The notes: a model not told the origin generated them from the sequence alone. DNA of 48,225 bases from an uncultured archaeon (GCA_964347045.1 CAYFXC010000015.1:1-48225); one strand, 5' to 3'; shown: positions 4,975 through 39,426, counted from the first letter of the stretch. Program-made: numbers and translations.

Positions 4975-5082
4975 TGGTGGGCCGGGCGTGAATTGAACAC
5001 GCGACCTCCGCCGTTTCCTCGCATCCAGCCTTTCAAGGCTTAATCCTGTGAGAGCGGCGTCATACCACTAGACTACCGGCCC
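4975..5082 (-). tRNA. tRNA-Val(CAC) with a 33-nt intron (about 5015-5047), encoded CCA
   Basis: GGGCCGG/CCGGCCC acceptor stem + ACCA; D arm GTC/GAC; anticodon stem CCGCT/GGCGG with loop CT-CAC-AC after splicing; T arm GCGTG-TTCAATT-CACGC. Confidence 0.92.
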
Positions 5083-39151: not shown

Positions 39152-39163
39152 AAACGTTTAAAA
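39152..39163 (+). promoter_or_regulatory. Putative BRE/TATA promoter of tRNA-Leu
   Basis: AAACG-TTTAAAA about 25 nt upstream of 39187-39188, which would give a leader of about 10 nt before G39197. Confidence 0.55.
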
Positions 39164-39196
39164 TGCTCAGGAGTTAATCTTTGCATCACCCTTATC

Positions 39197-39426
39197 GCGG
39201 GGGACCCTTCCGAAGGGGGTCTTTGCCGCCAAACCGGTGGCGGGGGTATCTACATGTGTAGACCTCACAGCCAAGCCTGGTTAACGGCGCAGGAGTCACC
39301 TGGAATGGCAGGTTGACGGCGTTACTCAAGATCTAACCAGGTTCATGAGACATCCTGTCCGGCAGCGGTTCGAGGGTTCGAATGAGTGGTGCGCTGCGAG
39401 CTCCGAAATTCCCTCCCCCCGCACCA
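39197..39426 (+). tRNA. tRNA-Leu(CAA) with 4 (probably 5) BHB introns
   Basis: Exons 39197-98, 39242-47, 39269-93, 39324-30, 39352-82, 39410-26 join to GCGGGGGTAGCCAAGCCTGGTTAACGGCGCAGGACTCAAGATCCTGTCCGGCAGCGGTTCGAGGGTTCGAATCCCTCCCCCCGCACCA: an 88-nt class II cloverleaf with A73 and CCA. If the first intron is not used, the gene starts at 39240 with the same mature sequence. Confidence 0.93.

Follow-up and report, generated by a model that had tools for sequence, protein, structure and literature searches.

Archaeal tRNA introns are taken to be confined to sites that leave the precursor able to present a BHB motif to the splicing endonuclease, and the near-emptiness of intron sites in or beside the acceptor stem is attributed to this requirement. 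The motif of the archaeal splicing endonuclease is the hBHBh' form, and the non-canonical sites named in a review are 3/4, 20/21, 22/23, 25/26, 29/30, 30/31, 45/46, 53/54, 56/57 and 59/60, followed by "etc." (PMC4090602); site 8/9 is absent from that list, in which 3/4 is the most 5' site named and is treated as an extreme case. The intron sites of C. merolae lie in the D, variable and T regions only (PMC3728597). Site 8/9 is not named in the accessible portions of PMC4033280, PMC3239211 (on ARMAN), PMC3218864 (on split and permuted tRNAs) and PMC4390854, in which "8/9" cannot be matched as text, and the insertions reported for Asgard archaea in "acceptor stem and junctions" are described as "few", without positions (10.64898/2026.10.13.758758). 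The best reading of these sources is that 8/9 is rarely or never listed as an intron site. Multi-intron tRNA genes contain up to three introns in the Thermoproteales, according to the accessible parts of PMC4033280 and PMC8450103, and up to five per gene in Asgard archaea (PMC11291895; 10.64898/2026.10.13.758758).

The window analysed here is a 48,225-nucleotide stretch of DNA (GCA_964347045.1 CAYFXC010000015.1:1-48225) from an Asgard archaeon that is Hermodarchaeota-like, and the interrupted gene that it carries is a tRNA-Leu. When four segments, 39248-39268 (site 8/9), 39294-39323 (30/31), 39331-39351 (37/38) and 39383-39409 (59/60), are taken out of 39240-39426 on the plus strand, ARAGORN recognizes the remainder as a class II tRNA-Leu(CAA) of 88 nt, whose cloverleaf is perfect and whose CCA is encoded. 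The unspliced gene receives no call from ARAGORN and no Rfam match, and a second tRNA-Leu(CAA) gene was not found in the 2.58-Mb assembly, which is 89% complete; two other ARAGORN "Leu(caa)" calls were rejected, one being a tRNA-Val(CAC) and the other a class I tRNA with the acceptor AGCCCGG. The mislabelled tRNA-Val(CAC) lies elsewhere in the window, on the minus strand at 4978-5082, and has a 33-nt canonical intron (Rfam 56 bits).

Exon 1 (39240-39247, tRNA positions 1-8, GCGGGGGT) is invariant in all orthologues and provides the 5' strand of the acceptor stem once spliced. Exon 2 (39269-39293, positions 9-30), comprising the D arm plus the 5' side of the anticodon stem, shows 97% identity among the orthologues, and exon 3 (39324-39330, positions 31-37), which contains the anticodon CAA, is invariant. 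Exon 4 (39352-39382, positions 38-59) comprises the 3' anticodon stem, the long variable arm and the T stem and loop, with 98-100% identity, and the invariant exon 5 (39410-39426, positions 60-76) comprises the 3' strand of the T stem, the 3' acceptor strand CCCCCGC, A73 and the encoded CCA. The BHB scorer finds full central helices at the 8/9, 37/38 and 59/60 junctions and three of four central pairs at 30/31. Intron 2 (39294-39323, 30 nt) is thus flanked by a relaxed BHB; it is present in all orthologues, and the alternative 31/32 register scores worse. In intron 3 (39331-39351, 21 nt), at the canonical site, the central helix is CTCA/TGAG with 4/4 pairs, and the outer helix, the anticodon stem, has 6 bp after removal of intron 2. 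Intron 4 (39383-39409, 27 nt) has a strict hBHBh' with 4/4 central pairs (TTCG/CGAA), five outer pairs (the T stem) and four intron-stem pairs, and this BHB is also present in the MFE and centroid folds. As a separate observation, intron 3 holds AACCAGG, the complement of the D-loop stretch CCTGGTT (39275-39283), and among orthologues L002-L015 a D loop that reads GCATGGT goes with ACCATGC in intron 3, a change that looks compensatory when read by eye; this suggests that intron 3 may pair with the D loop in the precursor and that splicing may follow an ordered pathway.

Upstream of the tRNA, a TATA-like box (TTTAAAA, 39157-39163), assigned by sequence similarity only and conserved in the orthologues, is followed by a second GCGGGGG (39197-39203), which begins 43 nt 5' of the first tRNA base and is a copy of the 5' acceptor strand. 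The spacer between this leader copy and the tRNA (39204-39239) contains two hairpins, ACCC..GGGT and GCCGCC..GGTGGC; it is conserved to the degree of an intron (69-79% identity), and its hairpins show paired changes among the orthologues when read by eye.

Several of these properties resemble described systems. As far as the accessible parts of PMC4090602 and PMC4033280 extend, the non-canonical introns of Crenarchaeota and Thermoproteales share with the 8/9 introns described here a length of 14-34 nt, a 3-4-3 BHB and a location outside the anticodon loop, and these organisms likewise combine an alpha/beta-type endonuclease, predicted in the present genome, with several introns per gene. However, the present gene has four introns, whereas the accessible text on the Thermoproteales gives a "maximum of three", and the 8/9 intron goes with a conserved leader copy of the acceptor strand, unlike the crenarchaeal introns in the accessible parts of the same two papers. 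Other reports on Asgard archaea, which concern the same phylum, describe many tRNA genes with two to five intervening sequences that are often missed by annotators, introns that favour BHB-forming boundaries, and lineage-specific gains and losses, all of which apply here; those studies center on other classes and on sites in the D arm, anticodon and T arm, and the Hermodarchaeota-labelled family is not discussed in them. The split and permuted tRNAs of Nanoarchaeum equitans, Caldivirga and Thermofilum pendens (accessible parts of PMC3218864 and PMC4090602) provide a further parallel, in that transcribed non-tRNA sequence pairs with parts of the tRNA and builds the endonuclease substrate, as is predicted here, and in T. 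pendens an overlong distance between promoter and tRNA marks the odd gene, as does the distance of 83 nt here compared with 32-43 nt. In contrast to those genes, as far as the same parts of these sources describe them, the present gene is a single collinear unit, its extra sequence duplicates the 5' acceptor strand instead of being the complement of a leader or trailer, and the proposed fate of this sequence is removal by RNase P, not splicing. No description of an acceptor-strand copy in a leader was found in the literature searched, and the word "leader" is absent from the preprint 10.64898/2026.10.13.758758.

The first-pass annotation had placed a BHB with the outer helix GC/GC, the central helix GGGG/CCTC and the intron stem TCTAC/GTAGA at 39240-39272, and all of these elements are found there in 3-4-3 geometry. 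The outer helix is formed by G39240-C39271 and C39241-G39270 and is lengthened in this genome by G39239-C39272 and U39238-A39273, to which the spacer contributes its final two bases. The central 4-bp helix pairs GGGG (39242-39245) with CCTC (39263-39266) and includes one G-U pair, the 3-nt bulges GTA (39246-39248) and ACA (39267-39269) lie on opposite strands, and the intron stem pairs TCTAC (39249-39253) with GTAGA (39258-39262) around the loop ATGT. Cleavage after the second base of each bulge would remove 39248-39268 (21 nt) and join U8 to A9. The BHB scorer counts 4/4 central, four outer and five intron-stem pairs over 39240-39273, and a strict hBHBh' at the 8/9 junction arises in 212 of 20000 shuffles of the intron (1.06%). 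The free energy of the BHB hairpin is ordinary (-9.8 kcal/mol, z = -0.94), and the case for the BHB therefore rests on geometry and conservation.

Conservation of the motif was assessed in 31 distinct Leu introns at 8/9 (14-34 nt), all of which keep 4/4 central pairs and an intron stem of 2-7 bp, with a loop that is free to vary. In alignment A1, the canonical BHB pairs are formed in 99.2% of the cells, compared with 33-51% for slid partners; compensatory changes are present at all five intron-stem pairs, and the central helix alternates only between G-C and G-U. None of 500 shuffles matches the observed pairing and covariation scores, and one of 500 matches the compensatory-pair count. ViennaRNA favours a G run slipped by one, with G4-G7 paired and a 2-nt bulge, and for this reason the choice of the 3-nt register is based on the endonuclease rule together with the intron-less allele. 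In genomes in which the intron begins with T, the intron-less junction is reproduced by the 8/9 register only.

The locus was found in 14 genomes of the same genus and four of a sister genus, and the 8/9 intron is retained in 17 of the 18 full-length related copies. The exception is genome G002 (locus L014), from which the intron is precisely missing: an uninterrupted GCGGGGGT continues directly into AGCC, with the same promoter and flanks and with the three other introns retained, and this sequence is a natural intron-less allele, whose junction is the one predicted. Across 17 orthologues from two genera, identity is 97-100% in the exons, 65-75% in the introns (69-74% in intron 1) and 38-46% in the far leader; the exons are thus conserved while the intron drifts within structural limits, as expected of an intron spliced by EndA. 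The paralogous tRNA-Leu(UAA), on contig C1 of this genome and in relatives, carries the same intron family at 8/9. The earlier proposal of an intervening sequence at 8/9 is accordingly borne out by its removal along with the three others to give a perfect tRNA-Leu(CAA), by the uninterrupted related allele and by the Infernal matches, in which the Leu(UAA) paralogue and a Ser gene align only from model position 9 on. The 8/9 element is very probably a genuine spliced intron, as these sequence comparisons indicate.

The annotation had also suggested a genome-wide search for the same 21-nt intron, and here the family signature is present only in the two Leu genes, with no other close copies found in the genome. 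A dispersed mobile element was rejected as the nature of the intron on these same two grounds. In exact-pattern scans of public genomes, the architecture was recovered from MAGs labelled Candidatus Hermodarchaeota or Promethearchaeota, and 8/9 introns are carried by three or more gene families within this archaeal family, besides two Bathyarchaeia MAGs; among ordinary archaeal Leu genes with a GCCGAGC D arm, no match for an 8/9 intron was obtained in 185,579 species genomes. A geometric genome scan for 8/9 BHBs gave 10,810 raw matches, almost all of which are due to chance, and such a scan is informative only after splicing and filtering with ARAGORN, a filter that overlooked the relaxed BHB of a Ser gene described below.

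Two EndA paralogues (PF01974) are encoded in the genome, by ORFs of 186 aa on contig C7 and 199 aa on contig C1. Paralogue 1 matches the catalytic half of the two-unit enzyme and retains the Tyr, His and Lys residues, and paralogue 2 matches the structural half and the beta-subunit models and has lost the catalytic His; by these matches, the pair is assigned to the (alpha-beta)2 arrangement. In the accessible part of PMC3239211, this type is linked to broad specificity and to relaxed and non-canonical BHB substrates, and by analogy the host endonuclease would be able to act at non-canonical sites. The structural, beta-like gene (contig C1, 239537-239797, minus strand) is located approximately 1.5 kb from tRNA-Leu(UAA), within an intron-rich tRNA cluster.

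The leader copy is 100% conserved in the 17 orthologues, and the leader just upstream of it is 38-46% identical. The TATA-like box starts 40 nt before the copy versus 83 nt before the real 5' end at 39240, and the normal distance from TATA box to tRNA 5' end in this genome is -32 to -43. Wherever a family-conserved gene contains an 8/9 intron, a copy of that gene's 5' acceptor strand lies approximately 13-43 nt upstream. Of the Leu genes in this genome that share one acceptor sequence, Leu(CAA) and Leu(UAA) possess intron and copy alike, and both are lacking from Leu(GAG) and Leu(CAG); in the Leu(CAA) gene of G002, intron and copy are both gone, and the one GCGGGGG that remains there lines up with the leader copy. 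Among the 47 genes of the family for which presence or absence could be called, intron and copy never occur apart (43 have both and four have neither). An exact upstream copy of the acceptor strand is found in none of 23 other tRNA genes, and approximate copies are found in 4 of the 23.

The second Leu gene in this genome, tRNA-Leu(UAA) (contig C1, minus strand, ~237,950-238,120), is interrupted at 8/9 by an intron of 23 nt, and its leader copy, GCGGGGG, lies 42 nt upstream. The tail of its spacer can form 8-9 bp with the D loop (z -4.5), and the sister genus shows an A-U to G-C compensatory change in this pairing. Pairing of spacer and D loop as an extension of the outer BHB helix was considered; it is strong in the Leu(UAA) genes (8-9 bp, z -3 to -5.7), and at the window gene the value is -7.3 versus -6.5 kcal/mol in shuffles, which is not significant, and the extension is therefore not claimed there.

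In the Leu genes, both copies of the strand and the 3' acceptor strand are invariant, and covariation therefore lends no support to their pairing. The Ser family, which serves as an independent test, supplies a few wobble-compatible changes. A multi-intron tRNA-Ser(UGA)-like gene on contig C7 of this genome (72544-72698), with the acceptor GCCGGGA and a relaxed BHB at 8/9, has a near-copy of the acceptor strand 13 nt upstream; its identity as Ser(UGA), with a 12-nt intron at 32/33, was read by eye and is tentative, and brute-force intron removal followed by ARAGORN was discarded as a route to its identity, because it produced numerous isotype calls in conflict with one another. In this Ser family, 11 genomes of the same genus and one of the sister genus have the intron and, 13-16 nt upstream, the copy; three genomes of the sister genus have neither, and no genome has one alone. 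The real strand of these genes is constantly GCCGGGA, while the leader copy occurs as GCCGGGG, GCUGGGA, GCCGGGA, GCCGGGC and GCCGGGU, which indicates that the copy is not the mature 5' strand. The three commonest forms make 7/7 pairs with UCCCGGC, with wobble in two of them, and the copies also include one U-U and one C-U mismatch at position 7. The Ser copy thus appears to behave like a sequence selected for pairing with the 3' strand.

Structure prediction gives a consistent picture. The earlier claim that the BHB is incompatible with the cloverleaf agrees with the predicted folds: tRNA bases 1-2 pair with 10-11 and bases 3-6 pair with the intron, so that the acceptor and D stems are impossible at that moment; a precursor cut free of its leader has the cloverleaf as its MFE, in which the intron makes a side hairpin and no BHB appears, and when the leader is present, the BHB forms. 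In the MFE folds of 31 Leu precursors (14 of the UAA type and 17 of the CAA type) and 12 Ser precursors (n = 43 in total), the 3' acceptor strand is placed on the leader copy in every case (31/31 and 12/12) and never on the real strand, with a margin of 3-14 kcal/mol over the best native-acceptor fold, and the BHB center is formed in 29 of the 31 Leu precursors. For 39187-39426, the MFE and centroid folds agree on the pairing of the copy, and they also contain the BHB at 59/60 and, for the one at 37/38, its central helix. After in-silico removal of the intron, the margin of the fold that uses the leader copy falls to 0-7 kcal/mol, and in 13 of 14 cases this fold is still predicted to be a little more stable than the native fold; a switch back to the native strand is therefore assumed. 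These energies come from nearest-neighbour folding, which ignores tertiary structure, tRNA tertiary contacts, proteins and co-transcriptional folding.

On balance, we consider it probable that the locus is a working tRNA-Leu(CAA) gene with four BHB introns, in which the leader copy acts as a stand-in acceptor strand, a reading that draws on sequence comparison and predicted folds. For the stand-in role taken separately, the scales tip slightly in favour. The acceptor helix is far stronger than a BHB of 2+4 bp, and the 3' strand would therefore pull the real 5' strand out of the motif if nothing else occupied it. The transcript would start approximately 10 nt before the leader copy (39197-39203), and the copy would pair with the 3' acceptor strand CCCCCGC, so that a tRNA-like frame is kept; by keeping the 3' strand off the real 5' strand, the copy would preserve the BHB. 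The two-subunit endonuclease would then cut after U8 and before A9, and a ligase would join the ends. The real 5' strand would subsequently displace the stand-in, and RNase P would remove the whole 53-nt leader at 39239/39240. We infer four parts of this model: cleavage itself, the sequence in which the steps occur, the exchange of strands and the action of RNase P.

A different account of the duplicated strand would make the upstream copy, or its first bases, the true 5' exon of a gene with five introns. Such a gene would place the promoter at its normal distance, which holds for the first copy and not for the second, and would fit the observations that the first copy is conserved like an exon and the spacer like an intron, and that the single GCGGGGG of the intron-less G002 allele aligns with the first copy; Asgard tRNA genes with up to five intervening sequences have been reported (10.64898/2026.10.13.758758), and a full BHB with four central, five outer and two inner pairs is possible at 2/3 in the present genome only. 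In other genomes, however, the 2/3 motif has only 1-3 central pairs, and registers 0-7 of a 43-nt intron between the GCGGGGG copies give no conserved canonical BHB in 30 related precursors; the sole recurrent signal, at register 5, is a GC palindrome without an outer helix. Identical repeats are also unable to provide the complementary central helix of a BHB. In several genomes, the Ser copy departs from the mature strand at positions 3 and 7, and therefore at most two of its bases could be exonic, and the copy of one Leu(UAA) gene (L045) is one G short. A fifth intron is thus quite unlikely.

The copy could instead be a remnant, without function, of whatever DNA event gave rise to the intron, such as an insertion that left a target-site repeat or a partial tandem duplication, in which case the BHB would be cut on the nascent transcript unaided. 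The BHB is wholly 5'-proximal, inside the transcript's first 80 nt, and its formation and cleavage could precede synthesis of the 3' strand and need no helper; the motif suffices for archaeal endonucleases (PMC4090602), and direct repeats would also account for easy joint loss. A degenerate duplicate of the 5' end lies 99 nt upstream of the Leu(UAG) gene on contig C33, a gene that lacks an 8/9 intron, and shows that 5' ends can become partly duplicated in this genome. However, a neutral 7-mer is not expected to remain invariant over two genera between flanks at 38-46% identity, three gene families with two acceptor sequences each have a copy that pairs with its own 3' strand, and intron and copy never separate in the 47 family genes. 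We regard a relic as unlikely. That the gene is a decaying, unused pseudogene, with the BHB-like shape a remnant or a product of chance, is hardly credible: standard tRNA finders make no call, UUG is readable by tRNA-Leu(UAA) through wobble, and another Leu(CAA) gene might be unassembled in an assembly that is 89% complete, but the five exons are 97-100% conserved in 17 genomes, the spliced product is a flawless cloverleaf, BHB geometry is kept at all four junctions, and the assembly yields no other Leu(CAA) gene.

Returning to the stand-in reading, a wider claim is that a spare copy of the 5' acceptor strand is a general, so far unpublished cis-acting device, which would hold the 3' strand, lend the real strand to the BHB and open acceptor-proximal sites such as 8/9, with coupled gain and loss; to us this is evenly poised. 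The gene family shows a route round the limit on acceptor-proximal introns, in that the 8/9 intron is always paired with a leader element able to take the acceptor pairing. If true, this would add a folding-helper element to pre-tRNA processing, account for a class of tRNA genes wholly missed by standard finders, and offer, in the archaeal group nearest to eukaryotes, a concrete example of an intron and its helper being gained and lost together. Annotations of genomes from this family will lack tRNA-Leu(CAA) and tRNA-Leu(UAA) unless such genes are sought.

Additional genes were observed outside the conserved families. A 2.8-kb contig of this genome (C59, 1421-1552) carries a tRNA-Ser(UGA) interrupted at 8/9 by a 31-nt intron with a strict BHB and again by a canonical intron of 13 nt, and its upstream GUCGGGA could make 7/7 pairs with the 3' strand. 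An orthologue of this gene with the 8/9 intron was found in no relative, and the gene may be strain-specific or a contamination. In two Bathyarchaeia MAGs (JAWCLV010000013.1 and JAGTQN010000121.1), a tRNA-Leu(GAG) has an unrelated 23-24-nt strict BHB intron at 8/9, and an imperfect repeat, GGCGGAGGGTC, lies immediately 5' of GGCGGGGGT; the upstream copy, read by eye as GCGGAGG, is imperfect. Little weight is given to the approximate copies that precede the Ser gene on C59 and the Bathyarchaeia Leu genes; similar matches occur upstream of 4 of the 23 control genes. The tRNA-Leu(UAG) gene on the minus strand of contig C33 (~2170-2400 of the reverse complement) has a 33-nt T-loop intron, and its degenerate duplicate (GCGGGAG and a D-arm-like stretch), which directly follows a tRNA-Glu, is probably, by its sequence, a relic of partial duplication. 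In a scan anchored on T arm, acceptor and CCA, tRNA genes with 22-33-nt T-loop insertions of the 59/60 type are numerous over the contigs of this genome and are misread or missed by ARAGORN, and the tRNA set of this genome is far more interrupted than standard tools indicate.
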